Shown: positions 7,720 to 26,412 of the stretch, piece by piece
How the letters are laid out: every line of letters starts with the position of its first letter
Position numbering within the stretch: position 1 is the stretch's first letter
Assembly: GCA_965205295.1 (NCBI GenBank)
Contig: OZ242167.1
Span: forward strand, 2,898,097 to 2,962,096
DNA length: 64,000 nt
Direction of reading: 5' to 3'
Origin: Candidatus Multivorans sp.
GTDB taxonomy: Bacteria > Acidobacteriota > Thermoanaerobaculia > Multivoradales > Multivoraceae
Translations under genes and position numbers: made by a program
Notes under the pieces: generated by a model
Databases searched by the model: none
The model's input: only the letters and a program-made list of their open reading frames with translations
What the model was told of the DNA's origin: nothing

Positions 7720-10506
7720 ATGAAGCACAGCAGAGCCACGGATTCTCGCTCCCTTGCCCCCGTGGCGAGCAGCACACTGATCATCTGCCTGGGGGCGCTC
7801 TTCGCCTTCGCGGGAGCGGCCGCATGGGCCCAGTCGATCGAGCGCGGCTCGATCACCGGCACGCTCACGGACCCGAACGGCGACCGGATGCCGGGGGTCA
7901 ACGTCACTCTCACGTCGACGGAGTTGGGAGCGACGAAGGAGACGATGACGGACGGGAACGGGCGCTACCGTTTCGTCGCCCTGCTGCCGTCCACCTACAC
8001 CGTCGAAGCCGCGATCGAGGGCTTCTCGACCGCCCAGCAGGGCGAGATCGAGCTCACGGTCGGCAAGAGCCTGACCGTCGACCTGACGATGCAGTTGGGC
8101 AGCGTCGAGGACGTGATCATCGTCGAGGGCTCGCCCCTGATCGATGTCCGCAGTTCTCAGCTCCAGACGACGGAGCTCAACAACGAGATCCTGATGGAGG
8201 TGCCCACCTCCCGGAGCATCCGCGGCATCGTCAAGCTGGCGCCCGGAGCGCACTCACTGAACCCCGACTCGAACTCCCACTCCGCTTTCGGCTCGTCCGA
8301 CCAGGGGATCCAGTACTCCGTCGACGGCGTGATCATCAACAGCCCGGAGGCGGGTGAAAGCGAAGTGAACCTCGGCTTCCTTTCGGTTGAGGAAGTCACC
8401 ATTCTCGGCGCGGGCGCCCCGGCCGAGTACGGCGGCTTCAGCGGCGTCATCGTCAACGTGACCACGAAGCAGGGCTCGAACGACCTGATCGGCCTGGTGG
8501 ACCTGCAGCTCGCGGACAACGACTGGCAGTCGCAGAACACGAACGACCCCGACCTGCAGCGAAGCGGCAGCGATCGCTCAGACACGGACGTGCACTTCGA
8601 CGTCGGCGGGCCGGTCCAGGCGGACAAGGCGTGGTTCTTCACCTCGGCCAGGCTCCGCAGAGAGAAGTCGAAGGCGTCCGAGGGCCATCCCAACGATCCC
8701 TCCTACGAGTCGCCCCGCATTGTCGGCAAGATCAACTGGGCGCCCTCGCAGGAGAAGATCTTCAGCGGGATGGTCGAGTACAGCACCCACGACGCGCTCT
8801 ACCAAGGCGCCGACGAGGGTGACTTTGTCTCCCCGAACGCGACCTTCAGCAACCTCCAGACCCAGTGGACCTACAACTTCAACTACACGGACATGCTGTC
8901 GTCCAACACCCTGCTCGATCTCAAGTTCGGCGGCTACCACCAGCGCCAGGACGAGCTGCCGGACAACGGCGACACACCGGCCCACTACGACGGCTTCGAG
9001 GACCGGCTGTCCGAGAACTGGTTCGGCCCCTTCCGGGCGAACCGGGAGCGCTACCAGATCGTCGGCTCGCTGAGCCACTTCACCGACGACTTCCTCAGCG
9101 GCGAGCACGACTTCAAGTTCGGCGTCGAGATCGAGAACACCCTGGTCAACACGCTCAGCGGGTTCTCGGGCGGCAAGTACTACTACGACTTCGCCGGCGA
9201 GCCGTACTTCCTGTACGAGAGCACCGGCTACAACACCTTCGGCGACACCGACCGCATGGCCGGCTACGTGCAGGACTCCTGGGGGATCAACGACCGGGTG
9301 CGACTGAACCTCGGCGTGCGGTTCAACTACTGGCGCGGCAATCTGGAATCGGACGTGAACGGCGTCCGCTTCGACCAGGGCACCGTGTTCACGCCCGACC
9401 TCGCCATCGCGCCCCGCGTCGGCCTGAACATCAACCTCGGCGACAACAACGACTCCGTGCTCAAGGCGCACTGGGGCCGCTACTACCACCAGGTCATCGC
9501 CCTCTTCTACAGCCGGCTGGCCCCCGAGAGCGACTTCACGGGCTACCTCTGGAATCCCGACGACGAGATCTGGGAACTCGACTTCTCGGAAGCCCGGGGG
9601 CCGGGCCAGTGGACGATCGACGACGGCCTCAGCGTGCCCTACATGCACGCCCTGGATGTCGGCTGGGAGAAGGTCCTGACCCGCACCGTGTCCCTCGACG
9701 TCACCGCGACCTACCGGACGAACCACGACTTCCTCGACGGCGTGAACCTGACCGGTGAATTCGAACCCGCGCGGTACACGGATCCGGACAGCGGACGGAC
9801 CTTCAACGTCCTCAACCAGACCAACGAGGGAGACAACCGCTTCTACTTCACGAACGTCGGCTACTGCGAGGACTACGGGCAGGCCTACAAGCAGCTCACC
9901 TGCTTCCGGAAGACGCGCAAGTACGCCGGCATCACGGCAAGCCTGTCCCGGCGCTGGCGCAACAAGTGGCAGATGCAGGCTTCGTGGACCTACGGTTCGG
10001 CCAGGGGTAGCGACAGCAACCTGCTGCTCGAGTTCCAGGAGGGGAAGGGCTCGTCGCTTGGCGGCTCGAACTTCTACACCGACCCGAACGAGCAGATCAA
10101 CGCCCACGGGAACCTGCCGATCGACCCGACCCATCTGATCAAGGTCGTGGGCTCCGCCGAACTGCCGGGCGGGATCGTCGTCGGCGGCTTCTTCCGGTTC
10201 TTCTCCGGCAACACCTACAACCAGCTCATCAGGGTGGAGGACGTCGATCAGCGTTCCGAGATCTTCGGCGCCCCGGGGGGTTCCTTCCGTCACGACGAGG
10301 GCATGAGCCTCGATCTGAGGCTCGAGAAGGACATACAAATAGGGGAGAACCGCAAGATCGGGGTGGGAATCGACATCTTCAACGTCGGTAATCAGGACAC
10401 CGTGATCGAAGCCGAACAGTCGCTCAACAGCGACCGGCCCTTCGGTGCCCCGACACGTCTCGTGCGTGGGCGGGTCTGGCGGCTGGGGGCGCGGTTCCAC
10501 TTCTAA
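7720..10506 (+). CDS. TonB-dependent receptor with N-terminal carboxypeptidase-regulatory-like domain
   Basis: Signal peptide. CarboxypepD_reg-like segment GSITGTLTDPNGDRMPGVNVTLTS...GNGRYRFVALLPSTYTV, then a plug region and a long beta-barrel. C-terminal aromatic residue (F). Confidence 0.8.
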   Translation: MKHSRATDSRSLAPVASSTLIICLGALFAFAGAAAWAQSIERGSITGTLTDPNGDRMPGVNVTLTSTELGATKETMTDGNGRYRFVALLPSTYTVEAAIEGFSTAQQGEIELTVGKSLTVDLTMQLGSVEDVIIVEGSPLIDVRSSQLQTTELNNEILMEVPTSRSIRGIVKLAPGAHSLNPDSNSHSAFGSSDQGIQYSVDGVIINSPEAGESEVNLGFLSVEEVTILGAGAPAEYGGFSGVIVNVTTKQGSNDLIGLVDLQLADNDWQSQNTNDPDLQRSGSDRSDTDVHFDVGGPVQADKAWFFTSARLRREKSKASEGHPNDPSYESPRIVGKINWAPSQEKIFSGMVEYSTHDALYQGADEGDFVSPNATFSNLQTQWTYNFNYTDMLSSNTLLDLKFGGYHQRQDELPDNGDTPAHYDGFEDRLSENWFGPFRANRERYQIVGSLSHFTDDFLSGEHDFKFGVEIENTLVNTLSGFSGGKYYYDFAGEPYFLYESTGYNTFGDTDRMAGYVQDSWGINDRVRLNLGVRFNYWRGNLESDVNGVRFDQGTVFTPDLAIAPRVGLNINLGDNNDSVLKAHWGRYYHQVIALFYSRLAPESDFTGYLWNPDDEIWELDFSEARGPGQWTIDDGLSVPYMHALDVGWEKVLTRTVSLDVTATYRTNHDFLDGVNLTGEFEPARYTDPDSGRTFNVLNQTNEGDNRFYFTNVGYCEDYGQAYKQLTCFRKTRKYAGITASLSRRWRNKWQMQASWTYGSARGSDSNLLLEFQEGKGSSLGGSNFYTDPNEQINAHGNLPIDPTHLIKVVGSAELPGGIVVGGFFRFFSGNTYNQLIRVEDVDQRSEIFGAPGGSFRHDEGMSLDLRLEKDIQIGENRKIGVGIDIFNVGNQDTVIEAEQSLNSDRPFGAPTRLVRGRVWRLGARFHF

Positions 10507-10524
10507 CCGGCTACGCTCCCGTCC

Positions 10525-12891
10525 ATGCGCCGCGCCCTTCCGCGGTGGTTTGCGCCCATAGCCGTCGCGGCGGCTATCGTCGCGCTGGCCCTGCTCGCCA
10601 TCCGCCTCCTGCCGGACCGCGAGATCACAGCCCCCTCCGGCCACTCCCTCGGCCGGCTCCCGGACGGCGTCGCCGCGGGCGACCTGAGCCTGCTCCTCAT
10701 CACCCTCGACACGACCCGGGCCGACCGCATCGGCGCTTACGGCTTCGCCGACATCGAGACGCCGCACCTCGACCGCCTGGCCGCGGAAGGCGTCCTGTTC
10801 GAGCAGGCGCAGGCGGTGGCGCCGCTGACCCTGCCCGCTCACTCGTCGATCTTCACCGGCGAGTTTCCGCCGGCGCACGGCGTCCGCGACAACGGCGGCT
10901 TCTACCTTGCCGACGAGCACGTCGTCCTGGCCGAGATCCTGCGCGACGAGGGCTTCCGCACCGGCGGCTTCGTCGGCGCCTTCGTCCTCGACGCCAAGTG
11001 GGGCATCTCCCAGGGCTTCGACCACTATTTCGACGACTTCGAACTCAGCGACACGGTCCGCCTGGCACTGAACGAGATCGAGCGGCCGGCCGGCGAGGTC
11101 ACCGACGCCGCCCTCGCCTGGCTCGACGGAGCCCCTGACGCGCGCTTCTTCTCCTGGGTCCACTACTACGATCCGCACTCGCCCTACGAGCCGCCCGAGC
11201 CCTTCGCCGAGCGCTACCGGAACCGGCCCTACGTCGGCGAGATCGCCTACGTCGACTCCCAGATCGGCCGCCTGCTGGCCTGGCTCGACGACAACGATCG
11301 CGCCAGCGACACGGTCGTCCTCGTGATCGGCGATCACGGCGAGAGCCTCGGGGAGCACGGCGAGTCCGGCCACGGTTTCTTCGTCTACGAAGCAGCGACC
11401 CGGGTTCCCTTCATCCTCCGCGCGCCCTACGACACGATGCGGGGGCGCCGGGTAGCGGACGTGGTCCGCGCCGTGGACGTCTCGCCGACCGTCCTCGACC
11501 TTCTCGCCGTGGACGCGGGCCAGGACGAGCGCGACTCCTCCTTCCAGGGCGCCAGCCTGGTCCGGCTGCTGACCGGCGCTTCGGGGCCGCGCCTTCCGGC
11601 CTACGCCGAGGCGGTCTACCCGCGCTACCACTACGGCTGGAGCGATCTCGCCTCGCTGCGGCTGGAGAACATGAAGTACGTCGCGGCGCCCCGCCCCGAG
11701 CTGTACGACCTGGCCGCCGACCCGGGCGAGCTGAACAACCTCTACTCCGCCCGCCCCGACGAGGTCGATCGAATGGCCACGATCCTCCGCGCGCTCGAGT
11801 CGAGATGGGCGGACGCCGCCCTGCCCGCCCCGGTCGAGGAGATCGACCCGGACACCCGGGCGCGGCTCGCCGCCCTCGGGTATCTCGCCAGCTTCACCGG
11901 CGGCGAAGCGGCGCCGGTCGACCGCTCCACGCTCGGTGACCCCAAGGACAAGATCCACCTCTTCAACCTGATGCGCATTGCCCGCGAGGCGTCGCTGCAA
12001 GGCAACAGGGACGCGGCCGTGGAGGCCCTGGAACGCGTGCTCGCCGAGGATCCGGCGGTCATCGACGCCTGGGTGCGGCTAGGCGACGAGCAGATCCGGA
12101 CGGACCGGACCGAGGCTGCAATCGGGAGCTACCGCAAGGCCCTCGAACTGAAGCCCGACTACGCGCACGCGGTGATCAACCTCGCCAACGCCTACCGGCG
12201 GGCCGGCGCGGAAGAGGAGGCCATCCTCGGCTACCAGGAGTTCCTGCGGCTCGATCCCCGCAACGCGATGATCCACTACGAACTCGCCCGCATGCTGGTG
12301 GACCGCGGCGAGCTCGACGGCGCCGACCGGCACCTGAAGGAAGCGGCAACCCTGTCACCCGACATGGGAGCGGCCTGGGTGGGCCAGGGCGCCGTGGCCC
12401 TCCTGCGGTCCGACCTCGCGGCCGCCGTACGGCTGTTCGACGAGGCGCTGGCAATCCAGCCGGACGTGCGGCTGGCGCACTACAACCTCGCCCTGCTCGC
12501 CGAGCAGCGCGGCGACGGGCGCGCCGCGGTGGACTTCTACCGCAAGGAACTCGACTACCACCCGCAGAGCTACCGGGTCCAGTTCAACCTGGGACGGCTG
12601 CTCGGGTTGCTGGGCGACCGGTACGGAGAAGGCGAAGCGTTGTCGAAGTCGATCGAGATCAATCCTGACTTCGCCGTCGGCCACTTCTTCCTGGCCAAGT
12701 CCCTGATCGACCGCAACGAGCAACTGGACCGGGCGATGGAGCTGGCCCGCACCGGCCTCGAACTCGACCCCGGCGCCGACATGGCCCCGATGGGCCACTA
12801 CCTGCTCGCCGACATCTTCACCCGCCTCGGCCAGCCGGAAGCGGCCCAGCGGGAACTCGCCACGGCGCGAGCGTTGGAACGAGAGCGTTGA
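10525..12891 (+). CDS. sulfatase-like hydrolase/transferase fused to C-terminal TPR repeats
   Basis: N-terminal alkaline-phosphatase-superfamily region (LLLITLDTTRADRIGAYGF, VIGDHGESLGEHGESGHG) without a C/S-x-P-x-R FGly motif. C-terminal ~350 aa of TPR units. Confidence 0.75.
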   Translation: MRRALPRWFAPIAVAAAIVALALLAIRLLPDREITAPSGHSLGRLPDGVAAGDLSLLLITLDTTRADRIGAYGFADIETPHLDRLAAEGVLFEQAQAVAPLTLPAHSSIFTGEFPPAHGVRDNGGFYLADEHVVLAEILRDEGFRTGGFVGAFVLDAKWGISQGFDHYFDDFELSDTVRLALNEIERPAGEVTDAALAWLDGAPDARFFSWVHYYDPHSPYEPPEPFAERYRNRPYVGEIAYVDSQIGRLLAWLDDNDRASDTVVLVIGDHGESLGEHGESGHGFFVYEAATRVPFILRAPYDTMRGRRVADVVRAVDVSPTVLDLLAVDAGQDERDSSFQGASLVRLLTGASGPRLPAYAEAVYPRYHYGWSDLASLRLENMKYVAAPRPELYDLAADPGELNNLYSARPDEVDRMATILRALESRWADAALPAPVEEIDPDTRARLAALGYLASFTGGEAAPVDRSTLGDPKDKIHLFNLMRIAREASLQGNRDAAVEALERVLAEDPAVIDAWVRLGDEQIRTDRTEAAIGSYRKALELKPDYAHAVINLANAYRRAGAEEEAILGYQEFLRLDPRNAMIHYELARMLVDRGELDGADRHLKEAATLSPDMGAAWVGQGAVALLRSDLAAAVRLFDEALAIQPDVRLAHYNLALLAEQRGDGRAAVDFYRKELDYHPQSYRVQFNLGRLLGLLGDRYGEGEALSKSIEINPDFAVGHFFLAKSLIDRNEQLDRAMELARTGLELDPGADMAPMGHYLLADIFTRLGQPEAAQRELATARALERER

Positions 12892-12902
12892 GTGTCCACC
12901 GG

Positions 12903-14654
12903 ATGAGCCGGCATCCGGCGCTCGCACTCGCCATCCTCCTCGCTGCCTGCGGCCAACCTGACCACCCCACCTCCGCCCCGCACCCACCCATCTTCATCGA
13001 CGCCGCCCGTGGCGCGAACCTCGACTTCGTCTACTTCAACGGCATGTCCGGCGAGCACTACTTCAACGAGATGATGGGCGGCGGCGCGGCCCTGCTCGAC
13101 TTCGACAACGACGGCGACCTCGACCTCTACCTCGTCCAGGGCACGATGCTCGGCCGCGATCGTTCGCTCGAAGACGCGCTCTTCCCGCCGCCGAAGGACA
13201 CGCCGCTCACCGACCGCCTCTACCGCAACGACCTGGAGCCGCCGGCCGGGGCCAACGCCGCGAGTCGTCCCCGCTTCACCGACGTCACCACAGCAAGCCG
13301 CATCGCCGCCAATGGCTACGGCATGGGCGTCACCACCGGCGACTTCGACAACGACGGCTGGACAGACCTCTACGTCACCAACTTCGGCGCCAACCAGTTG
13401 CTGCGGAACCGGGGCGACGGCACGTTCGAAGACACAACATCGGCCTCCGGAGTCGACGACCCGCGCTGGTCCGTCGGCGCCACCTTCTTCGACTTCGACC
13501 GCGACGGCTGGCTCGACCTCTACGTCGGCAACTACGTCGACTACTCGCTCGCTACCCACACCCCGTGCCCGCTGGCGAGCGGCGCGCTGACCTACTGCGC
13601 CCCCGGCGCCTACCGGCCCGTGCCGGACAGCCTGTTCCGCAACCGCGGCGACGGCACGTTCGAGGACGTGTCGTTGCCGTCCGGGATCGGCCGCGAACCG
13701 GGCGCCGGCCTGGGCGCCGTCGCCGCCGACTTCAACGGCGACCGCTGGCTCGACCTGTACGTCGCGAACGACCTGATGTCGAACCGCCTCTGGATCAACC
13801 GCGGCGACGGAACCTTCGCCGACAACGCCCTGCTCGCCGGCGTCGCCGTCAACCGGGAGGGCCAACCCGAGGCCGGCATGGGCGTCGACGCCGGAGACTT
13901 CGACGGCGACGGCGATCCCGACCTCGTGCTAGGACACCTGGAACAGGAGACGAACACCCTCTACGTCAACGGCGGCGCCGGCCTGTTCCGGGACCAATCG
14001 GCGTCGTCCCAACTTGGGCCGCCGAGCCTGCCGTTCACTGCCTTCGGCATCGGCTGGATCGACTACGACAACGACAGTTGGCTCGACGTGCTCGCCGTCA
14101 ACGGCGCCGTGATCGGCATCGACGCGCTGATCCGCGCCGGCGATCCGTACCCGCTGCGGCAAGCGAACCAGCTTCTGCGCAACCTCGGCAACGGCTCCTT
14201 CGACGAGGTCACGCCCGAGGCTGGCGCCCTCTTCCAGTCGGCCGAAGTCAGCCGCGCCGCCGCGTTCGGCGATGTCGACAACGACGGCGACCTCGATGTC
14301 GTCGTCGTCAACAGCAACGGGCCCGCCCGCCTGCTTCTCAACCAAGTCGGGCAGGACCGCTCCTGGCTGGGCTTGAGGCTCGTAGCCCACAACCGCGACG
14401 CGCTGGGGGCGCAGGTCCTCGTCCACCGGCAGGGCGCGCCGCCGATCTGGCGCCACGTCCACACCGACGGCAGCTACGCGTCAGCCCGCGATCCGCGGGT
14501 GCTCGTCGGCCTCGGGCACGGCGACGGCGCTGAGGTCGGTCACGTCGAAGTCCGCTGGCCGGACGGTACGGCGGAGCGGTGGACGGATGTGCGCGTCGGC
14601 GGGTACCAGACGCTGGTCCAGGGCGAGGGGGAGGCGATCGGCCGGCGTCCCTGA
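12903..14654 (+). CDS. CRTAC1-family protein (FG-GAP/VCBS repeats + ASPIC/UnbV C-terminal domain), lipoprotein
   Basis: The ORF track start at 12888 is TTG; ATG at 12903 gives MSRHPALALAILLAACG. Repeated GDFDNDGW/ADFNGDRW/GDFDGDGDPD motifs and a C-terminal VEVRWPDGTAERW block. Confidence 0.8.
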   Translation: MSRHPALALAILLAACGQPDHPTSAPHPPIFIDAARGANLDFVYFNGMSGEHYFNEMMGGGAALLDFDNDGDLDLYLVQGTMLGRDRSLEDALFPPPKDTPLTDRLYRNDLEPPAGANAASRPRFTDVTTASRIAANGYGMGVTTGDFDNDGWTDLYVTNFGANQLLRNRGDGTFEDTTSASGVDDPRWSVGATFFDFDRDGWLDLYVGNYVDYSLATHTPCPLASGALTYCAPGAYRPVPDSLFRNRGDGTFEDVSLPSGIGREPGAGLGAVAADFNGDRWLDLYVANDLMSNRLWINRGDGTFADNALLAGVAVNREGQPEAGMGVDAGDFDGDGDPDLVLGHLEQETNTLYVNGGAGLFRDQSASSQLGPPSLPFTAFGIGWIDYDNDSWLDVLAVNGAVIGIDALIRAGDPYPLRQANQLLRNLGNGSFDEVTPEAGALFQSAEVSRAAAFGDVDNDGDLDVVVVNSNGPARLLLNQVGQDRSWLGLRLVAHNRDALGAQVLVHRQGAPPIWRHVHTDGSYASARDPRVLVGLGHGDGAEVGHVEVRWPDGTAERWTDVRVGGYQTLVQGEGEAIGRRP

Positions 14655-14712
14655 CCCTGTGGCACGATCAACCGCCATTGCCGCCAACACTGGCCTCCGA
14701 GAGAATGCGCCC

Positions 14713-14994
14713 ATGAAGTCCATCACTGTTCGCGAACTGCAAAGCCCCTCCGCCGACGTTTGGGGAATGCTCGCAAAGGAGAAAGACCTCGTCGTCCGGT
14801 CCAACGGCGAGCCGGTCGCGGTACTTTCCGCGGTCACTGCCTCGACGCTGGACGCGGCCCGTGCAGCACTTCGGCAAGCTCGGGCTCAAGCGGCGGTCGC
14901 CGGAATGCAGCGCCGCGCTGCTGAGGTCGGCCTTGACGAGTGGAGCCCGGAGGACATCAACGCCGAGATCAATGCCTCCCGTCGAGAAAAATGA
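14713..14994 (+). CDS. Phd/YefM-like type II antitoxin (putative)
   Basis: 94 aa. MKSITVRELQ...DLVVRSNGEPVAVLSAV matches the Phd/YefM beta-alpha N-terminal pattern. Lies immediately upstream of a PIN-domain gene in an A/T-richer islet. Confidence 0.55.
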   Translation: MKSITVRELQSPSADVWGMLAKEKDLVVRSNGEPVAVLSAVTASTLDAARAALRQARAQAAVAGMQRRAAEVGLDEWSPEDINAEINASRREK

Positions 14995-15096
14995 GGATCG
15001 TCGTCGCTAGCCTTGTCGCTCACTGTGCAGTCGCGACAGTCAGATCAACCGAATCGTCCCCCGGCGAGCAGGGACCACACTACCGATCGAGATACG

Positions 15097-16119
15097 ATGT
15101 ACATCCTTTTCGATAGCAACATCTGGATCAAGGAACTTGGTCTGAACTCCACTCTCGGCGCAGCTGCCAGGTACTTCATTCGGCAAAGGAACGCAGTCGT
15201 CGCTGTTCCGGAAGTAGTGAGAAGAGAGGTGACCACCCACTTCGCCGATGACCTACTTCGGCGCAAACAGACGATCCACGATTCGCATCGCCGCCTATGC
15301 ACTGTGATGGGAGAACTCAAAGAACCGATGCTGCCGAGCGACGAAGAACTCATTGCCCGTGCGGCTTCGCTCATTGACGACGTGGACGTACCTACGAAGC
15401 CGATCCCATTCACGCTCCCAGCTGCTGAGTCGTCGCTCGAGAAAATCCTTCGGAAACAACCACCGTCCGCCGAGAAACGAGAGCAGTTCAGGGACGGTGT
15501 CATCTGGCACAATTGCCTAGATCTCCTCCATGAATCGGACGTGTTTCTAGTTACCAGCGACAAGGACTTCTGTGAGGGTAGAGCACGAAGGAAGGGCCAG
15601 GTGCTCGCCGCGAACTTGCGCCAAGAAGCGGAAGAGAGCCACCACCGGCTCACGTTCGTGACGAGCCTTTCGGCTCTCCTCGTAGACATCGGGGGCGATC
15701 TCGACATCGACGACGAGAGCCTAGCCGACGGCATATTCGCCAAGGCTGAACAGTACATCGCGAACTTGCTTGACAGGCATGGCTTTGTCATTGGCGATGC
15801 CGCGCCATCCGTCCGGCGCAAGCTGTTCGTTACAGAGAAGGCCTCGAAGCTAGCTGTCGACGTAGAAGTGGTGTTTCCATGCTTCGACGCTAGCGGTGAC
15901 GATCGAACGGACGCGGCGATCAAGGCTCATGGCTCGGCTCTGTACGATACCGAGTCTCGAGAAGTGACCGTGCCTCACATGCCGGAGCTGGAACTGCGCT
16001 ATCGGGATGTGGCCGACGAAGAGAAGTCTCACCGGTCGCTCTTCCTATCGGGGACGGTCTCGATAGGTCCGCGTACCGTTGTACACGAGGTCAGGCTAAG
16101 CCGAAGTTCTAGGGCCTGA
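15097..16119 (+). CDS. PIN-like domain protein with ~170-aa C-terminal extension (putative toxin/nuclease)
   Basis: N-terminus MYILFDSNIWIKE (first PIN acidic residue) and VFLVTSDKDF (distal T-x-D-x-D-F PIN motif) near residue 150. The remaining ~170 aa have no recognisable domain. Start trimmed to the ATG at 15097. Confidence 0.55.
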   Translation: MYILFDSNIWIKELGLNSTLGAAARYFIRQRNAVVAVPEVVRREVTTHFADDLLRRKQTIHDSHRRLCTVMGELKEPMLPSDEELIARAASLIDDVDVPTKPIPFTLPAAESSLEKILRKQPPSAEKREQFRDGVIWHNCLDLLHESDVFLVTSDKDFCEGRARRKGQVLAANLRQEAEESHHRLTFVTSLSALLVDIGGDLDIDDESLADGIFAKAEQYIANLLDRHGFVIGDAAPSVRRKLFVTEKASKLAVDVEVVFPCFDASGDDRTDAAIKAHGSALYDTESREVTVPHMPELELRYRDVADEEKSHRSLFLSGTVSIGPRTVVHEVRLSRSSRA

Positions 16120-16235
16120 GCGTCGCGGATCGTTGCCGCGCCTAGGGTTTTACGGTTTCCGGGCCGCACAATGTACCCATGTCGCATAGTCAATCGTGGT
16201 AGACATGGAGACATGATAGAGCTAAGATAGAAGCC

Positions 16236-17954
16236 ATGTACATCGAACGCGTACCCAACCGCAACTCGCCACCCGCCGTGCTCCTGCGCGAGTCGTACCG
16301 ACAGGACGGAAGAGTCTGCAAACGGACGCTCGCCAACCTTTCCAAGTGGCCCGATCATCTCGTCGAAGGGCTTCGCACTCTCCTGAAGGGCGGCGTCGCA
16401 CTGCCTTCCCTGGACTCGGCCTTCGAGATCCTGCGTTCCAAACCGCACGGTCATGTCGCCGCCACGCTCGGCGCCGCGCGACAATGCGGCCTCCAGACAC
16501 TGCTCGACCGCCGACCCTCACGGGAGCGGACGCTCGCGGTCGCCATGATCATCGCGCGCATCCTGGAACCAGGCTCCAAGCTCGCCACCGCCCGCGGACT
16601 CTCAAGCGAGACCTCGCCCCACTCCCTCGGCGAGGAACTCGGAATCGAGGAGGCGGGCGCCGACGAGCTCTACTCCGCCATGGATTGGCTGCTCAAGCGG
16701 CAGCAACGCATCGAGCGACGGTTGGCCAAACAGCACCTCGAAGACGGTTCCCTCGTCTTGTGCGACGTGACTTCGGTCTACTTCGAGGGCGCGAAGTGCG
16801 CCCTCGCCCGGCGCGGGTACTCCAAGGACGGCAAGCCGGGCAAGCCCCAGATCGTCTTCGCGCTGCTCTGCGACCGGGACGGATGCCCGGTCGCGGTGGA
16901 GGTCTTCGAAGGCAACACCGCCGATCCCGGCACGTTGAGCGCCCAGGTGCAGAAGCTCAAGGAGCGCTTCTCGCTCGACCGCATGATCATGGTCGGCGAT
17001 CGGGGCCTGCTCACCAGCGCCCGCATCCGCGAGGACCTCGAACCCGGCGGTCTGTCCTGGATCACCGCCCTGCGCGCGCCGGCGATCCGCACGCTGGTGC
17101 AGCAAGGCCACCTGCAACTGTCGATCTTCGACGAACGGGACATGGCCGAAGTGAGCGCCCCCGAGCTGTACCCCGCAGAGCGGCTGATCGTGTGCCGGAA
17201 CCCGCTCCTGGCAGCCAGGCGGCGCCGCAAGCGCGAGGAGCTTCTCGACGCCACCGAGCGCAAGCTCGAGGCCGTCGCCGAAGCGACGAGGCGCTCACAG
17301 CGCTCCCTGCGGGGCAAGGACAAGATCGCCGCCCGCGCCGACCGCGCCCTGCGCGCCCACAAGGTCGGCAAGCACTTCGACACCGAGATCGAAGAAGACG
17401 GCTTCCGCTACTCCCGCAAGCTGGCGCAGATCGCCGAAGAGGCCGCCCTCGACGGCTTCTACGTCATCCGCACCAACGTGGCCGAGGCCGACCTCCCGGC
17501 GCCGGAGGCGGTCCGGGCCTACAAGAGCCTCAGCCGCGTCGAGCGCGCCTTCCGCAGCTACAAGAGCGTCGACCTCAAGGTCCGCCCCGTCCACCATCGC
17601 CTCGCCGACAGAGTGCGAGCCCACGTCTTCCTGTGCATGCTCGCCTACTACGTCGAGTGGCACATGCGACGCCTTCTCGCTCCCTTGCTCTTCGACGACG
17701 ACGACCCAAGGGACGAACGCTCCTCGCCCGTCCAGCCGGCTCGACGGTCCCAGGCAGCCCGCGCCAAGGCGAGCCGCAGGCGCACACCGGAAGGACTACC
17801 CGTCCACAGCTTCCAGACATTGCTCGACGACCTCTCCACACTGACCCGAAATCGCGTCCGAATGCAGGGCCAGGGAAACGCCGCCCTGGACGTCCTGGCC
17901 ACACCCACACCCCTCCAGGCCAAGGCGTTCAGCCTCCTCAACCTCCGACCTTGA
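16236..17954 (+). mobile_element. IS1634-family (IS4-like) transposase gene; element ends not resolved
   Basis: N-terminus MYIERVPNRNSPPAVLLRESYRQDGRVCKRTLANLSKWPD is typical of IS1634-family transposases. DDE-type C-terminal region. Terminal inverted repeats could not be identified by eye. Confidence 0.75.
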
Positions 17955-18110
17955 CCAACCGTACCCAGTAGACAACACTCCCAAATCCCAAGTTTGCCCC
18001 GTCATTGCAGGGAATTTCACGCATCGGACCGCAGAACTTCGGTCTAAGCGAAGGAGAGTGGCTGGGGCGGTACGAACGCGCCGATGCGTGAATAGGCCGC
18101 TCCGATCGGT

Positions 18111-19910
18111 TCAATACGGCGGAAGTACATCCCCCACCCGAGCACAGCACGCCTCGCCGCGCTCGTACCGCTCCAGGTTGCGGGCCAGACGCCGCCCCTC
18201 GCCGCCGCGCTCCAGCCGCTGCGCTTCCTGGACCAGAGTGCGCTGGATGTTGATCGCTTCCTCGAAACGGCCGACCTCGGCCAGTGCCATCGCCGCGGTC
18301 TCGGCCTTGGGCGCGGCGTTGTCGGCTTCGAGCAGCGCGCCGGCGATGGCGAGGGCACGCGGACCGTCACGGAGCGACGGGTCGGGGGCGCCGGCAAGCA
18401 GTCGCGCCAGGGAGTGAGCGGCGCGGTCGTCCGTTGAATCGACCCCCAGCCGCGCTTCGAGCGAGGCCTTGGCGTCGGCGAAACGCCCCAGGCCCATCAG
18501 GACGGTCGCCTCGCGCAGCCAGGCGAGGCCCTGTGCCGGATCGATCTCGCGGACGCGGGTGTAGTGCGGCAGGGCTTCGTCGAGCTGGCCGGTGCGCACG
18601 AGGGCTTCGGCGAGTCCGAAGTGGATGCGGGAGGCCCGCTCGTCCCCCGGCTCGTGCCGTAGCGCTTCCTGCAACGCGACGACGGCCTGCTCGAAGTTCC
18701 CGGTCTGCGCCAGCACGGCCCCCAGTCCGAGCCGGGCATCGCCGTTGCCGGCGTCGCTCTCGAGCACCCGGCGGTAGGTCGCCTCCGCTTCGTCCAGGCG
18801 TCCCAAGCGCGCCTGGACGCTGCCGAGGCTCAATCTCGCGTCGACCAGTTCCGGCTCGAGTTCGAGCGCCCGGCCGAGATGCTCCAGGGCGCGGTCGTTC
18901 TGGCCGAGCTCTCCCAGCAGGACACCGAGGTCGGAGTGGGCGCGGGCATTCTCCGGCTCCAGCCGGACCGCGACGCCGAAGTGCTCCAGCGCCGCCTGGG
19001 GATTGCCGCGGCGCACCAGGACGGTACCTAGGCTCTGATGGGCGCGCGGATTTGTGGCGTCGGCAGCCACGGCCTGCCGGTAGGCCTCCTCCGCTTCCGC
19101 CAATCGGCCCTCCCGCGCGGCGGCGTTGCCTCGCGTCAGGTGGGGCGAGGCGCCAATCGCCAGGGTCGTCAGCTCGTGCATCAAGGGGTCGGCCATCGCG
19201 ACTCTGGTCGTCCCGCTACGAGCCAGGGCCCGCTCGGCGTCCTCGAACCGGCCCTGCTCCCGATACGCCTGGCCGAGGTGGTAGTGGAGGACGGAAGCTC
19301 TCGGCTGGAGCGTCAATGCCCGCTCGAACTGTCCGATGGCTTCCGCGTATACGCCTCGCTCTTCGGCGACCCGGCCCATTCCATAGGCCACGGCGGCCGA
19401 GTCGTCCACCACCGCTGCCCGCACATAGAGGAGCTCCGCTTGGTCGACCTGGCCCTGTTCGAGCTCGAGGTCGGCGAGGCGGATCAGGGCCGGCGCGTCG
19501 TCGAGCCGCAGATCGAGCGCGTGACCGAACGCGGCCGCAGCCCCTTCGACATCCCCGCTGCCGGCTGCCAACACACCCAGGTAGTAGGCCCAGGCGAAGG
19601 ACTCCGGATCGAGGGCATGCGCTTCGCGGTAGCAGGCCTGGGCGGCTTCGAGGAGGCGGTGGGCCTGGTAGAGGCGGCCCAGCTCGCCGAGGGCCTGCGC
19701 CTGGTCGGCGGCGCTTGCGGCTTCGTCGGCGAGCAGTGCGTCGAGTTCGGCGCGGCGGGCCTCCAGCTCCCGGGCGAGTGGCGGTTCGAGTTCGGCCAGT
19801 TCCGGGTGAGGGATCCCGGCCGGCGACGCCGAAGTCTCGCCCAAGTCGGACGCGCAAGCCAGAAGCATCGCGAGGACAAGAGCAATCGTGCCTGCTTTCG
19901 CGATGCTCAC
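18111..19910 (-). CDS. TPR-repeat lipoprotein
   Basis: GTG start. Lipoprotein signal MSIAKAGTIALVLAMLLACASD, then ~14 TPR-like helical repeats. Confidence 0.8.
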   Translation of the reverse strand: MSIAKAGTIALVLAMLLACASDLGETSASPAGIPHPELAELEPPLARELEARRAELDALLADEAASAADQAQALGELGRLYQAHRLLEAAQACYREAHALDPESFAWAYYLGVLAAGSGDVEGAAAAFGHALDLRLDDAPALIRLADLELEQGQVDQAELLYVRAAVVDDSAAVAYGMGRVAEERGVYAEAIGQFERALTLQPRASVLHYHLGQAYREQGRFEDAERALARSGTTRVAMADPLMHELTTLAIGASPHLTRGNAAAREGRLAEAEEAYRQAVAADATNPRAHQSLGTVLVRRGNPQAALEHFGVAVRLEPENARAHSDLGVLLGELGQNDRALEHLGRALELEPELVDARLSLGSVQARLGRLDEAEATYRRVLESDAGNGDARLGLGAVLAQTGNFEQAVVALQEALRHEPGDERASRIHFGLAEALVRTGQLDEALPHYTRVREIDPAQGLAWLREATVLMGLGRFADAKASLEARLGVDSTDDRAAHSLARLLAGAPDPSLRDGPRALAIAGALLEADNAAPKAETAAMALAEVGRFEEAINIQRTLVQEAQRLERGGEGRRLARNLERYERGEACCARVGDVLPPY

Positions 19911-19971
19911 CGTCCGATCCTAGTTGCCGCCGCGCGCCGCCCCTCGTGTATCGTCGTCTCCCGCCGATTGA

Positions 19972-20937
19972 ATGTTCGTTTCTCGCTCCATCGCGATCCT
20001 GGTTCTGGCGTGCGGCTGCGCGGCGCCGCAAGCCGAATCAGCCGGGCCGAGCGCGAGAATCCCGGCCCTGATCATCGACGGCGTGAACAACCACGACTGG
20101 CAGCGCACCACCGCCGCCGTCAGGGCGACGCTCGAGCGGACTGGGCGGTTCACGGTTGACGTCAGCACTTCGCCCGGCCGGAGCGCGTCGCGCGAGGAGT
20201 GGGAGGCCTGGCGGCCCGTCTTCTCGGATTACGCAGTCGTGGTCAGCAACTTCAACAGCGACTGCGAGCGGGAAGACGGCGATTGCGAGCCCTACTGGTC
20301 GGCGAACCTTCGCGCCGACTTCGAGACCTTCGTTCGCGAGGGAGGCGGTTTCGTTCCGGTCCACGCGGCCGACAACCACGCCGCGGACTGGATCGAATAC
20401 AACGAGATGATCGCCGTCGGCGGTTGGGGGGGACGCCGGACCGGGGTCTCGGGCTCCATCCTGCGCAAGATCGACGGCATCTGGACCGCGACCTCACCCG
20501 ACGAGGGGTTGAGCGGCAGGCACGGTCGCATCCGCGAGTTCCAGGTCATCCACGATCGGCCCGACCACCCCATCCTGGCCGGGCTGCCGACCACCTGGAT
20601 GCACGCGGCAGACGAGCTCTACGCCTCACTGCGCGGCCCGGCCGGGAACGTCGAGGTCCTCGCGCACGCCAACTCCCTCGTGACCGAAGAGCTCGAGCCC
20701 ATGCTGATGCTCATCACCTACGGCCAGGGCCGCGTCTTCCACATCCCGATGGGGCACTACAACGACGAGTTCGAGCCCATCGGCGCCTCCCTGCACTGCG
20801 TCGGCTTCCAGACCGTGCTCGCCCGCGGCACGGAGTACGTGGCAACCGGCGAGGTGTCGATCGGCGTGCCGGCTGCCTTCCCAGGGCCGGACGAGCCGTC
20901 CGTTCTCGCCCCCGAACGCCTCGAGTGGCCGATGTGA
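19972..20937 (+). CDS. thuA: ThuA-domain protein (class I glutamine-amidotransferase-like)
   Basis: Signal peptide. ThuA-type segments FVPVHAADNHAADW and IAVGGWGG. Confidence 0.8.
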   Translation: MFVSRSIAILVLACGCAAPQAESAGPSARIPALIIDGVNNHDWQRTTAAVRATLERTGRFTVDVSTSPGRSASREEWEAWRPVFSDYAVVVSNFNSDCEREDGDCEPYWSANLRADFETFVREGGGFVPVHAADNHAADWIEYNEMIAVGGWGGRRTGVSGSILRKIDGIWTATSPDEGLSGRHGRIREFQVIHDRPDHPILAGLPTTWMHAADELYASLRGPAGNVEVLAHANSLVTEELEPMLMLITYGQGRVFHIPMGHYNDEFEPIGASLHCVGFQTVLARGTEYVATGEVSIGVPAAFPGPDEPSVLAPERLEWPM

Positions 20938-20951
20938 TCTGCCGCCGCGCC

Positions 20952-23885
20952 ATGCGTCCCGGCCTTTCCGGCCGGCTCTTCTTCCCGGTCCTGGCCGCGA
21001 CGCTGAGCGCGGCGCTTCAGGCCCAATCGCCGGTTCCCGCCACGCCGACACCGGTCGTCCCGGGCTACGAGCATCTGAGACTCGCCGGCGCGGCCAGCGA
21101 AGCGGCGCTCGGCGAAGTGCTGCTCGGCGAACTGAACTGCCTGTCCTGCCATGAACCGACGCTTGACGTGGCGAGACGGATACCCACCCGCACGGCCCCC
21201 GACCTCGCGGGGCTCAACCAACGGGTCACCGTGGAGTGGCTCACCGGTTATCTGGCCGATCCGGAAGAACACAAGCCGGGCTCGACGATGCCTGAGGTCC
21301 TGCACACTCTCGACACCGAGGATCGGAACCGCGTCGCGCGTTCCATCGCGCGCTTCCTCTTCTACGAGGAGGCGCCGCCCGAGCCGAATGCGGCCCCGGT
21401 CGCGGCCGACGATGCGAACGGCGGTGTAGCGGACGAGTTCCCGGTGTTCCGGTTCCGGACCGCGGTGGAGCGGGGGCGCAGGCTCTTCCACTCGATCGGT
21501 TGCGTCGCCTGCCATGCGCCCGAGGCATCCGGCGCCGAACCGGCGATCCCCTCCGTCCCGCTGCCCGACCTGGCGGCGAAGACCTCGGTCGCCGCGTTGA
21601 CTCGCTTCCTCCTGGACCCACGGTCGACAAGGCCAGGTGGGCGCATGCCGTCCCTGTACCTGACCCCGGCGGAAGCGGAGAATCTGGCGATCTATCTGCT
21701 GCGGGACCAGGAACCGCAGGTCGTCGAGCGCCGACAGGGCTTCGAGTTCGAGTACTTCCTCGATCCCATGCAGGACGAGGACGTAAGAGGCTTCTTCGAC
21801 CGGCCACCTGCCGATCTCGACGCGATGGAACCGGCCGCCGAGGGCCGGATCGGCCGCCTGTCACTACGCCTGCCGGTTGAGATGAACTACGGCAACCACG
21901 CGTACCGGTTTGCCGGCGTGATGCGGGTGCCCGAGACGGGGCGCTACACGTTCACACTGGCCTCGGACCGCCGCTCCGGTTCCTCGCTCGCGGTCGACGG
22001 CGAAGTGGTCGCCACGAAGTCAGGCGGAAGCGCCCGCGAGGCGGACGCACAGCTCGAACTGAACGCCGGGGACCATCCGGTCACGGTGGCGTACTTCATT
22101 CGCGGCGACACCCGGGAACCGTTCCTGACGGTGGGTCTCGCTGGCGATCCTCTACCCCAGGACGCGGCGCTCGAGGACTACACAACCTACGAGAACGTAC
22201 GGCTGCGGCCGGGTGGCGGCACCCTGGTTTCCAAGGACGCGGAGGACGCGGGCTGGGGCGCCCGACTCTTCGTCCGCCACGGCTGCGCGTCGTGCCACGG
22301 CTACGCGGGAATCCAACCCGACCGGCGCGACATCACGACCCCGCCGGCGCTCACCGACCTCGATCCGGCGGCCGTCGCCAGCGAACCCGGCATGCACACG
22401 GGCAACGACTCGCCGCGCTATCCGCTCGCCGGTCATCAGAAGCGCGCGATCCGAGCGGCCCTCGCTGCCCTTCAGGATCTCCCAACGCCCCGGACACCCG
22501 CCGACCAGATCGTCCATGCGATGGCGAGCTACAACTGCTACGCCTGCCATCGCCGAAACGCCGGGACGGTCGCGGTCGGCGGACCGGACCCCGTACGCGC
22601 GACGTACCTCGAGGTGGTCGGCGGCCAGGACCTCGGCGACGAGGGGCGGCTACCGCCGGACCTGCACGCCATCGGCGGGAAGCTGAAGCCCGAAGCGCTG
22701 CACTCGGTTCTGACGGCGGACGAACTGCACGTCCGCCGCGACTTCATGGAAGTCAGGATGCCGAACTTCGCCGGCGAAGCAATCGATCGGCTCGCCGACT
22801 CCCTGGCCACCGCCGACGCAGCGGCCGGCGACCTGAGCGAACCGGCCTTCTCGACCGAGGCGGCCTCCGACGGGATCGAACTGCTGGGCGAGCAGGCCAT
22901 GAGCTGCGTCACGTGCCACAACGTTCACGTCCATCCCGCCCAGGGCGTCTCGACCATCGACCTGGCCACCGTCTATGACCGGTTGCGGCCCGGATGGGTC
23001 ACGCGGTACCTGCGGGATCCGGCCGCGATCCGGCCGGGAACCCGCATGCCTGCCTTCTGGCCCGAGGGCGCCGCGAACTTCCAGCACCTGGGCGGCGGCA
23101 CCGTCGACGGCCAGATCGATGCGATCTGGAACGCCCTCTCGCTCGGCACCTCCATGCCGGCGCCCGAGGGCACGAACATCGGCGCCGAGCTGGTTCTCGT
23201 GCCGGACGAGCGCCCGATCGTGTTCCGCACCTTCATGGTCGACGTCGGACCGCGGTCGATCGCCATCGGCTACCCGGAGAACGTCCACGTCGCCTTCGAC
23301 GCGAACAACGTCCGCCTGGCGAAGATCTGGCGCGGCGGTTTCTTCGACGCCAAGGGCACCTGGCAGGGCCGAGCGGGCCGGTTCCTCGGTCCCTACGGCA
23401 CGGATGTGCTGGACCTTCCGCCCGGCCCGGCCATCGCGGACCTGGGCGACATCGACAGTCCGTGGCCCACGGCGGGCCGAGCCGACCGGAACGTGGGCGG
23501 CCGTTTCCTCGGCTACCGGCTCGACGACGAGGGCAGGCCGGTGCTGCGCTACCGCCTGCACGACCTCCTGGTCGAGGAGGCGCCGACGCCACTGCACAGC
23601 GGCGGCGGCACCAACCTGATCCGCCGCTTCCGGCTTACCGCCGGCTCGGCCCCCCGCCCCCTCTATCTGCTGCTGGCCGAGGGCGAAGAGATCGTCTCGA
23701 CGTCGGAGCGCTCATGGAGCGTCGATGGCCGGCTCGACGTATCGATTGCCTCCGAGGCCTCCGGTGCTGCCGAAGCGGATCTCGCGCCGTTCGTTCGGGA
23801 GTCCCAGGGCGTCCGGCAGCTCCTGCAGCGAATCGACCTTCAACCGAACGAAACGCTCGACATCGACGTGACTCTCTCCTGGTGA
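20952..23885 (+). CDS. large secreted multi-domain protein with several c-type heme-binding CxxCH sites and a PA14-like domain (PVC-type heme-binding protein family)
   Basis: ATG at 20952 gives a signal peptide, MRPGLSGRLFFPVLAATLSAALQAQ. CxxCH sites CLSCH, CVACH, CASCH, CYACH and CVTCH. PA14-like segment GRYTFTLASDRRSGSSLAVDG. Confidence 0.7.
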   Translation: MRPGLSGRLFFPVLAATLSAALQAQSPVPATPTPVVPGYEHLRLAGAASEAALGEVLLGELNCLSCHEPTLDVARRIPTRTAPDLAGLNQRVTVEWLTGYLADPEEHKPGSTMPEVLHTLDTEDRNRVARSIARFLFYEEAPPEPNAAPVAADDANGGVADEFPVFRFRTAVERGRRLFHSIGCVACHAPEASGAEPAIPSVPLPDLAAKTSVAALTRFLLDPRSTRPGGRMPSLYLTPAEAENLAIYLLRDQEPQVVERRQGFEFEYFLDPMQDEDVRGFFDRPPADLDAMEPAAEGRIGRLSLRLPVEMNYGNHAYRFAGVMRVPETGRYTFTLASDRRSGSSLAVDGEVVATKSGGSAREADAQLELNAGDHPVTVAYFIRGDTREPFLTVGLAGDPLPQDAALEDYTTYENVRLRPGGGTLVSKDAEDAGWGARLFVRHGCASCHGYAGIQPDRRDITTPPALTDLDPAAVASEPGMHTGNDSPRYPLAGHQKRAIRAALAALQDLPTPRTPADQIVHAMASYNCYACHRRNAGTVAVGGPDPVRATYLEVVGGQDLGDEGRLPPDLHAIGGKLKPEALHSVLTADELHVRRDFMEVRMPNFAGEAIDRLADSLATADAAAGDLSEPAFSTEAASDGIELLGEQAMSCVTCHNVHVHPAQGVSTIDLATVYDRLRPGWVTRYLRDPAAIRPGTRMPAFWPEGAANFQHLGGGTVDGQIDAIWNALSLGTSMPAPEGTNIGAELVLVPDERPIVFRTFMVDVGPRSIAIGYPENVHVAFDANNVRLAKIWRGGFFDAKGTWQGRAGRFLGPYGTDVLDLPPGPAIADLGDIDSPWPTAGRADRNVGGRFLGYRLDDEGRPVLRYRLHDLLVEEAPTPLHSGGGTNLIRRFRLTAGSAPRPLYLLLAEGEEIVSTSERSWSVDGRLDVSIASEASGAAEADLAPFVRESQGVRQLLQRIDLQPNETLDIDVTLSW

Positions 23886-23913
23886 TCTCGTGGCCCTTCT
23901 GAGTACCAGCACG

Positions 23914-25473
23914 ATGCAACCCGGCCGCGCCGCCGCGATGGCGCTGGTCGCCCTGCTGATCTCCCTGCCCCTGGCCCTTCTCGCCCAGGAACCCCTGGAC
24001 GATGGCCAGCGCGAAGAGACGGAGAAGGAGCTCCTCGACCGCCAGCGGGACGCCATCGGCGCGCAGGCCGCCGCGGAGGAGCTGTCCTACCGGCTGCTCA
24101 CGATGCCCCTCCAGGAGGGCATGTCGATGGAGGTCGGCGGGTTGTTGCAGCTCTCGGACGGCCGCATCATGGTGGGGACCCGGCGGGGCGAGATCTTCAT
24201 CGTCGAGAACGCGTTCAGCGATCCGCCGCAGCCGACGTTCAAGCAGTACGCCTTCGGTCTCGGGCAACCGCTTGGTCTGCTTGAACTGGACGGCTGGATC
24301 TACACGGCACAGCGGGGCGAGTTGACCCGGATCAAGGACACCGACGGCGACGATCGGGCCGACGTCTTCGAGACCGTCACGGATGCCTGGGAAACCAGCG
24401 GCGACTACCACGAGTACGTCTTCGGACCCCGCCTGACGCCGGACGGAAAGCTCTGGGTGACGCTGAACATCCCCTTCGGCGGCCAACCCTACGGGTTCGC
24501 CGACTGGCGGGGCTGGGCAGCCCGGGTCGATCCTGCGACCGGCGACGCCGAGTTCGTGGCGGCGGGCCTACGCTCTCCCGCCGGCGTCGAGGTCAGCCCC
24601 TGGGGCGAGGTCTTCTACACGGACAACCAGGGCGAGTGGAACAACGCCTCGAAGCTCTCGCTGATCGAGGTGGGCGACTTTCACGGTCATCCCCACGGCA
24701 TGGCCTCGACCCACCTTCCCGAGTCCCAGGTCGAGCCGCCGCCGGAGGGCCAGCCGCAGGGCGGAACCTTCATGAAGGACCTGCACGAGCTGATTCCGAA
24801 CTACCGCATGCCTTCCGTCTGGTTCCCCTACGTGAAGATGGGGCAGTCCCCCAGCGGTCTCAAGTGGGACACGACCGGCGGCAAGTTCGGCCCCTTCGCC
24901 GGTCAACTCTTCGTCGGCGACCAGCATCACGCGATGGTCATGCGGGTGTTCCTGGAGAAGATCGGCGGCCACTGGCAGGGCGCCGCGTTCAACTTCCGGC
25001 GCGGCCTCGACAGCGGCGTGATCCGCCTCGCGTTCGCCGACGACGGATCGCTCTTCGCCGGCATGTCGGACCGCGGCTGGGGCGGCGTCGGCCCCGAGCC
25101 GCACGGTCTCCAGCGGATCGTCTGGACCGGCGCCGTGCCGTTCGAGGTCCACGAGATGCGGGCTCAGTCCGACGGCTTCGAACTCACGTTCACCCGGCCG
25201 GTCGATCCCGCGAGCGCAGGGGACACCGCGTCCTACCGCATGCAGAGCTACACCTACCGCCTCAGCTCAAGCTACGGCGGACCGGAGGACGACAAGCAGC
25301 GGGTCGCCATCCAATCCGCCCGGGTCGCCGCCGACGGCATGAGCGTCCGCCTGACCGTCGAACCGCTGCGCGCCGGCTACGTCCACGAGCTGCATCTCGA
25401 CGGAGTCCGGAGCAAGGGCGGCGAACCGCTGCTCCACCCGGAGGCCTACTACACGCTCGTCAACATTCCATAG
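23914..25473 (+). CDS. beta-propeller dehydrogenase-like protein (soluble glucose/sorbosone dehydrogenase-like)
   Basis: ATG at 23914 gives the signal MQPGRAAAMALVALLISLPLALLAQEP; the track start at 23890 is GTG. Propeller-like repeats. Co-localised with the ThuA and heme-binding genes, as in PVC-type clusters. Confidence 0.6.
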   Translation: MQPGRAAAMALVALLISLPLALLAQEPLDDGQREETEKELLDRQRDAIGAQAAAEELSYRLLTMPLQEGMSMEVGGLLQLSDGRIMVGTRRGEIFIVENAFSDPPQPTFKQYAFGLGQPLGLLELDGWIYTAQRGELTRIKDTDGDDRADVFETVTDAWETSGDYHEYVFGPRLTPDGKLWVTLNIPFGGQPYGFADWRGWAARVDPATGDAEFVAAGLRSPAGVEVSPWGEVFYTDNQGEWNNASKLSLIEVGDFHGHPHGMASTHLPESQVEPPPEGQPQGGTFMKDLHELIPNYRMPSVWFPYVKMGQSPSGLKWDTTGGKFGPFAGQLFVGDQHHAMVMRVFLEKIGGHWQGAAFNFRRGLDSGVIRLAFADDGSLFAGMSDRGWGGVGPEPHGLQRIVWTGAVPFEVHEMRAQSDGFELTFTRPVDPASAGDTASYRMQSYTYRLSSSYGGPEDDKQRVAIQSARVAADGMSVRLTVEPLRAGYVHELHLDGVRSKGGEPLLHPEAYYTLVNIP

Positions 25474-25532
25474 ATGTGTAGCAGCGTTGCCGCCGCCGGC
25501 TGGTCAACTCGGCCGTGTGCGCGACCTCACCG

Positions 25533-25853
25533 TCAAGCCGAAGACGGGTCCGGCGCAGCCGGCACAAACTCGGCCTTGACCGCGAGCATCTGGGCGAGCT
25601 CAATCCGTTTCTCACGTTCTGCTGGCCAACCCACTACATCCGCGTGGAGCGAGTGGCGACTTTTCTCGGGAACGACATTCAGTTGAGACACAGACCGTAC
25701 GTCAGCGGCCAAGAAGAGCCCGTGTCCCTTGAACGACGCCATCCGAGATGTTTCGGAAGCAAGCTGGCGTACTTCAAGGCCGTCCAGCCCGTCAATTCGG
25801 TAAACCGACGTACGTAGATCGGCTGGGGGCATGAAGGCGGCGTACTTCACCAT
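25533..25853 (-). CDS. hypothetical protein (third gene of a three-gene cassette); start uncertain
   Basis: ORF 25533..25973. A start at M41 (MVKYAAFMPP) avoids a 62-nt overlap with the upstream gene. No recognisable domain. A/T-richer than flanks. Confidence 0.35.
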   Translation of the reverse strand: MVKYAAFMPPADLRTSVYRIDGLDGLEVRQLASETSRMASFKGHGLFLAADVRSVSQLNVVPEKSRHSLHADVVGWPAEREKRIELAQMLAVKAEFVPAAPDPSSA

Positions 25854-25911
25854 TCCATTCGAAACGGAGAAGTGGCTCTTGGAGTAGAGGAACCGGGCAA
25901 GGGACTCCCGG

Positions 25912-26412
25912 TCACGGATCGCCAGCCGCAGCCTCCTTCGCGATCCACAGAAGGTCCGACGGAAGCTGGACATCGGAGCGGCGACGGCCTGTCTCCCGGC
26001 GACCTGGAACGTGAACTGCGTAAAAGAGGCCGCCGTCTGGGCCGAAGCTCACGATCAGCGACCGCGCCCTACCACTTGACCATTGCATGGCCACCCCACC
26101 GTCAGGCTCAGGCACGATCTCGGGCATCGGCACATCGGGCGTGAGGGTCAACAGGGCATCATTCAGGGCGTCCTTCGCGCGACGCGACAACGGCTTGGCT
26201 TCGCCGCCATCCCAGCCGGGACTGGACGTCTCTTCGATGATCTCCCGCAGGTTCCTCACGGCATCCCGCCTTGACAACTGCCACGCGGAGACTGCGGATT
26301 CCGAAGTCTCTTCCTCCCTGACGATTCGAAACGCCTCCGGCCCAACAGCCGTCGAACGACGCCTCCCGAGTTGTCCCACCCAATCCTGAGCTTCCAAACC
26401 AACTAGAGTCAT
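25912..26412 (-). CDS. hypothetical protein (second gene of a three-gene cassette)
   Basis: 166-aa ORF overlapping the stop of the upstream gene by 4 nt (ATGA coupling at 26409-26412). No recognisable domain. Confidence 0.45.
   Translation of the reverse strand: MTLVGLEAQDWVGQLGRRRSTAVGPEAFRIVREEETSESAVSAWQLSRRDAVRNLREIIEETSSPGWDGGEAKPLSRRAKDALNDALLTLTPDVPMPEIVPEPDGGVAMQWSSGRARSLIVSFGPDGGLFYAVHVPGRRETGRRRSDVQLPSDLLWIAKEAAAGDP

Follow-up and report, generated by a model that had tools for sequence, protein, structure and literature searches.

Directly downstream of a small Phd/YefM-like gene in a Candidatus Multivorans sp. genome lies a gene for a long PIN-domain protein, and the arrangement raises the question of whether the two form a toxin-antitoxin (TA) module or are neighbors for some other reason. 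The original prediction, made on the letters of a 64,000-nucleotide stretch of contig OZ242167.1 (hereafter the window), suggested an atypical type II TA pair and named an abortive-infection-type nuclease as the alternative. Both ORFs are real and lie on the + strand, the first coding for 93 amino acids (14713-14994) and the second for 340 (ATG at 15097, stop at 16117-16119), with a gap of 102 bp between them. The proposed start at 15097 agrees with the N-termini of all homologs, which read M-x-[IV]-V-[FL]-D-S-N-[IV]-W. The 3' end of the originally reported interval (14713-16119) falls within an IS1634-family element.

The long PIN protein is a PIN_12/DUF4935 family member

The 340-aa ORF encodes a complete PIN_12/DUF4935 protein (PF16289). 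Its score of 54.4 bits (E 2.7e-14) clears the gathering score of 32, and the match covers profile positions 1-172 of 172 and protein residues 3-158. Thirty homologs of ~335 aa, 36-43% identical, align with it from end to end, and every one of them (30/30) carries a precomputed PF16289 match. Residues D6, N8, E39, E44, D133, and D155 are invariant in this alignment; the predicted catalytic residues D6, E39/E44, D133, and D155 are intact, in keeping with the PIN signature that had been read from the translation. Neither the 93-aa nor the 340-aa protein found a match in an NCBIfam scan or, at E up to 1, among the PADLOC-DB v2 models, and a tblastn search of 72,556 plasmids with the PIN protein was likewise empty. 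To our knowledge, no function is assigned in Pfam to the PF16289 family as a whole.

A structure model of the protein (pLDDT 87.8) places the PIN domain, including a long helical insert after strand 2, at about residues 1-200 (15097-15696), followed by a C-terminal domain at about residues 204-316 (15706-16044) and a disordered tail. This two-domain architecture is fixed across all complete relatives seen. The expectation of a second domain was sound, although its boundaries were not: the PIN domain ends near residue 200 rather than 150 and, with the extra domain at ~204-316 and the disordered tail behind it, the additional part amounts to about 115-140 residues instead of ~170.

The length of the protein, taken at first as an anomaly of roughly 2.5 times the usual size, is ordinary for its family, since PF16289 proteins are ~335-380 aa by definition (PMC5499597). 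Matelska et al., 2017 described DUF4935 as a family of ~350-aa proteins in which residues 1-200 form an N-terminal PIN domain and the C-terminal alpha/beta part has no assignment, with genes that are mostly mono-cistronic (PMC5499597). The window protein and its subfamily resemble that description in their ~335-350 aa length, in the helical insert after strand 2, in the conserved acidic residues, in a C-terminal alpha/beta region without a homolog of known structure, and in mono-cistronic context. They stand apart within PF16289 as a divergent subfamily whose members come from high-G+C and environmental bacteria.

The C-terminal domain is specific to the subfamily

The C-terminal part had been described as lacking any recognizable motif or family, and this held up. 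Its structure could be modeled confidently, as a single long helix lying against an antiparallel sheet of 5-6 strands, with a generic cystatin/NTF2-like shape, but the model led to no informative relative. A profile of the domain had no match among PDB sequences at E up to 10, Foldseek against viral structures (BFVD) returned nothing at E up to 0.001, and the fold matches that were obtained were generic, with Z no higher than 6.4. Compared with cystatin, latexin, and NTF2-like alpha+beta roll folds, sequence identity is at most 13%, Z never reaches 8, and there is no common functional motif. Judged from the model, the likeness is one of shape only, with no evidence for homology or protease-inhibitor function.

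In sequence space, the profile matched 373 cluster representatives (50% identity clusters, E up to 0.001) among 1.84 billion. In the best 150 of these 373, assessed by length and match position, the domain is always C-terminal, at ~residues 196-334 of full-length (~335-aa) proteins. Within the same best 150 of 373, the sequence profile appears to retrieve only its own PF16289 subfamily and the domain to occur in no other architecture. Two candidate fusions, P0233 (479 aa) and P0235 (432 aa), were rejected as ORF calls extended too far upstream; the PIN domain of both begins at an internal M-I-V-V-F-D-T-N-I-W.

The PIN_12 gene lies in an indel and ends in an insertion sequence

Comparison with close relatives revealed a discontinuity between the two genes. 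Homology to the related loci L062 and L064 stops at 15055 and picks up again near 19921-19942, so that 41 bp separate the left edge of the indel (15055/15056) from the PIN_12 start codon downstream of it. The flanks read CCGAATC/ and CCGATC/CTAGTTGCCG, with the slash marking the edge. Across this breakpoint, G+C falls from about 0.66-0.75 to 0.55-0.60, and the PIN_12 gene is low in G+C relative to its host. At the same chromosomal site, relatives L062-L065 carry a 99% identical antitoxin gene and no PIN_12 gene. A scan for promoters and terminators found no promoter-like site or terminator upstream of either the 93-aa gene or the PIN_12 gene, its sole promoter-like sites lying inside the IS1634 element. 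There are no tRNA genes in 8000-26000 and no Rfam families in 14000-20500, and the indel thus has no nearby tRNA gene or known RNA element.

Seen against L062-L065, the indel also bears the insertion sequence and, convergent with PIN_12, a TPR-repeat protein gene (18111-19910, - strand), which we regard as context only. Its presence in the same indel led us to consider it as a partner of PIN_12; the idea was rejected because TPR likeness was found at only two other loci, where it looks like repeat similarity, and because the G+C of the gene (~0.72) is host-like. The TPR gene shares 93.5% identity with that of L069, against 99-99.8% in the flanks.

The IS1634-family element occupies 16102-18043 (+ strand), with its transposase at 16236-17954 (NCBIfam transpos_IS1634, 3.2e-105), terminal inverted repeats at 16101-16119 and 18024-18042, and a 6-bp target duplication, CTAAGC, at 16096-16101 and 18044-18049. 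The PIN_12 gene now ends in 5 codons and a stop contributed by this element, in place of the last 13 residues of the protein, which are not conserved. The element is missing from L001 and from L069, a 99% identical relative whose IS-free allele (P0332) codes for 348 aa.

Such damage could mean that PIN_12 is a decaying passenger, acquired horizontally, without current function and en route to loss. Its changed 3' end, its absence from L062-L065, its atypical G+C, and the empty stretch upstream in the promoter scan all fit this picture. However, the reading frame is fully open with all invariant residues present, and the segment that was replaced belongs to the disordered, non-conserved tail, at a point where many family members end. 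The insertion must also be very recent, given its absence from the 99% identical L069. Between the two diverged PIN-domain alleles omega is 0.2, which indicates that PIN_12 is still under selection. We therefore consider decay an unlikely account of this gene.

The upstream antitoxin appears to have lost a PIN_3 toxin

A Phd/YefM-like gene directly upstream and on the same strand had been predicted, and the 93-aa gene proved to be one, though not by its own score. Against PF02604 the protein reaches 16 bits where the threshold is 29.8 (E 0.011, N-terminal half only), whereas homologs 60-66% identical over their full length carry PF02604 matches, and NCBI names three of them (P0033, P0050, P0060) Phd/YefM antitoxins. 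Going by these homologs, the gene is a genuine member of the Phd/YefM antitoxin family.

The same homologs pointed to a different partner. In two independent lineages (L054-L061), they are followed by overlapping or abutting genes for a 136-aa PIN_3 toxin (PF13470). In the window, no such toxin gene lies at or overlaps the antitoxin stop, and tblastn detected no PIN_3 homolog anywhere in the 64 kb. What can be seen instead is a dead frame (14991-15055, + strand) whose ATG overlaps the antitoxin stop (ATGA) at 14991 and which reads MRIVVASLV... At this junction, the window has AAAATGAGGATCGTCGTCG where L058 has AAAATGAGGGTTGTGATCG, so that MRIVV stands against MRVVI(DTNV). An Ala occupies the position of the catalytic Asp, and the likeness to a PIN_3 start fades after ~5 codons; over those ~5 codons the resemblance is suggestive of a relic of a PIN_3 toxin start. 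With only this MRIVV start and no PIN_3 homolog in the window, the 93-aa gene is an orphan antitoxin here, and it seems to be what is left of a Phd-PIN_3 module after loss of the toxin. At the nucleotide level it is 100% identical to L001 and differs from L062 by 1 nt, although the flanks are ~10% different. Identity of this segment across strains otherwise ~10-12% apart argues that the antitoxin is not decaying.

Could the Phd protein nevertheless be the antitoxin of the long PIN_12 protein? As a genuine if atypical type II system, it would neutralize PIN_12 and autoregulate a shared operon, the antitoxin having been recruited to a new toxin in the 'mix and match' manner known for TA partners. 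The order of the genes on one strand, antitoxin then toxin, and their spacing of 102 bp agree with this, as does the fact that L001 and L069 have kept both genes. Because the DNA upstream of PIN_12 is its own for just 41 bp, co-transcription is likely; the intact antitoxin sequence and the antitoxin-only genomes L062-L065, which fit loss of a toxin, are also in line with it. On the other hand, the conserved form of the long protein does not bring a Phd-like partner with it. An HMM of the antitoxin family, run against all ORFs of L001-L053, matched just in the window and in its close relative L001, leaving none at the other PIN_12 loci (L002-L053). Outside one lineage, the two genes are not co-inherited, and they do not constitute a unit that is inherited together and overlaps or is separated by a few bp, as type II TA genes typically would. 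The antitoxin has kept its sequence in common with the PIN_3-paired homologs, including the C-terminal DINAEI region. A breakpoint and a shift in G+C separate it from PIN_12, the putative PIN_3 start overlaps its stop, and the PIN_12 family has been described as mono-cistronic (PMC5499597).

VapBC-type modules, and specifically the Phd/YefM-PIN_3 pairs of L054-L061, differ from the window arrangement on several counts: VapC toxins are ~130 aa and not two-domain proteins of 340 aa, the paired genes overlap or abut with no 102-bp gap, and in L054-L061 the antitoxin's partner is the 136-aa PIN_3 where the window neighbor is PIN_12. Taken together, the PIN_3 partners, the PIN_12-free sites, the Phd-free loci, the breakpoint, and the relic suggest that the pairing of Phd and PIN_12 is secondary and that the two appear not to be a cognate TA module. 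A TA pair of this kind strikes us as improbable.

The adjacency of the two genes, their shared strand, the antitoxin-then-toxin order, and their joint persistence in L001 and L069 are compatible with an orphan Phd that has been co-opted to regulate or neutralize PIN_12. Antitoxin-only genomes of the L062 type would also be expected of a true TA pair that had lost its toxin and kept its antitoxin. One may speculate, with rather little confidence, that the site following the ultra-conserved orphan Phd is a recombination hot spot at which PIN_12 has been gained, lost, and remodeled by domain, with Phd co-opted as promoter, regulator, or neutralizer. Co-existing strains would then share a near-identical C-terminal domain, perhaps a sensor, but carry nuclease domains of old divergence (dS 0.83). 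If this were true, the combination would be a hybrid between a TA relic and a single-gene defense system.

PIN_12 genes have no recurrent partner

The PIN_12 subfamily has no conserved partner gene or synteny. Among the 74 first neighbors at 38 PIN_12 loci, and likewise among the 69 second neighbors, each Pfam family turns up at most twice. When the ORFs within 1.8 kb of 45 homologs were clustered by blastp, no cluster extended beyond 3 loci, and those that did recur reflect a few closely related loci or TPR similarity. Among the neighbors, housekeeping genes are numerous. At individual loci, defense or mobile genes lie close by. L066 has the order Helicase_C-MZB-PLDc_2-PIN_12-TIR_2 with overlapping or adjacent genes; in L002, AbiJ_NTD3 is upstream of PIN_12 with RES and IS66 nearby; and DruA and IS66 TnpB accompany the gene at the P0020 locus. 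Other neighbors include McrBC, AbiJ_NTD4, AAA_15/21, restriction-modification subunits, Fic, integrase, and transposases.

A housekeeping nuclease for RNA processing or decay, using its PIN domain in the way of Fcf1, Nob1, or SMG6 and the C-terminal domain as a substrate adaptor, would suit the surroundings in the window, which are metabolic and without the character of a defense island, but it is very hard to reconcile with a domain confined to 373 representatives, a patchy distribution across phyla, the presence/absence polymorphism in close relatives, the strongly divergent alleles in co-existing strains, the mobile and defense neighbors at several loci, and the unconserved synteny.

Comparison with Cosus/Brc24

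The sole PF16289 member known to have an experimental phenotype is Cosus (Brc24), which is encoded by a single-gene integron cassette and is reported to confer complete resistance to phage T7; the substitutions T12A, D14A, and D96A reduce protection by >10^5-fold (bioRxiv 10.1101/2024.07.02.601719). We compared it with the window protein using the sequence from plasmid pKAZ2 (KR827391.1; protein ALG87191.1, 382 aa). Cosus matches PF16289 at E 2.4e-36, and both proteins score above threshold, the window protein at 54 bits and Cosus at 126 bits. By shared profile, Cosus is a distant relative of the window protein within PF16289.

Each consists of one polypeptide in which a C-terminal extension of ~140-200 aa follows the PIN_12 domain at the N-terminus, and neither has an obligatory partner. 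The motif D-[ST]-N of the window family corresponds to I-D-N in Cosus, and [QE]F-x-D-[GA] and [ST]-x-D-K also line up. A short C-terminal motif, [RH]TD-x-x-L-x-L-x-GD, is common to both and suggestive. Profile-profile alignment (hhalign) of the two families gave marginal values: at full length, 162 columns aligned with E 0.049, and the C-terminal domains alone aligned over 27 columns with E 0.074. Unlike the window protein, Cosus is 382 aa long and comes from integron cassettes of low-G+C Gammaproteobacteria. The defense phenotype is that of Cosus, and the window protein is linked to it through the shared Pfam model.

Discussion

The reading we prefer, with a probability of roughly 0.6, is that the long protein is a stand-alone, self-contained PIN_12 nuclease situated beside an orphan Phd gene and most probably engaged in defense against phages or mobile elements. 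The protein would combine a metal-dependent PIN nuclease of the VapC kind with the alpha+beta domain that its family carries at the C-terminus, and it would act by itself, most likely as an RNase. The C-terminal domain might restrain or target the nuclease by sensing, oligomerization, or auto-inhibition, in place of a separate antitoxin. By analogy to Cosus/Brc24, its role would most probably be defense of the abortive-infection type. The nuclease alternative offered in the original prediction thus fares better than the paired TA module, which the PIN_3 partners, the PIN_12-free sites, the breakpoint, and the want of a recurrent neighbor contradict; it fits the sporadic distribution, the defense and mobile neighbors of some relatives, and the Cosus phenotype.

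In this stand-alone scenario, PIN_12 probably came to lie beside the orphan Phd through the indel. Given the position of the indel edge, 41 bp ahead of the PIN_12 start, transcription from the antitoxin promoter may run on into the gene. The IS1634 insertion that replaced the 13 C-terminal residues in this genome followed later.

The analysis removes a false lead, as what looked like an overlong PIN toxin beside its antitoxin is the standard PF16289 form beside a probable TA relic. It also defines a coherent, uncharacterized subfamily of PF16289, comprising the 373 cluster representatives with the C-terminal domain and a confident family-specific model, and ties that subfamily through the Pfam model to the phenotype of Cosus. 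Finally, closely related strains provide a natural comparison of an IS-truncated allele, an intact one, and, in L001, one with a swapped nuclease domain, together with the deleted state, and such alleles would make functional tests of the C-terminal domain and of the orphan antitoxin straightforward.

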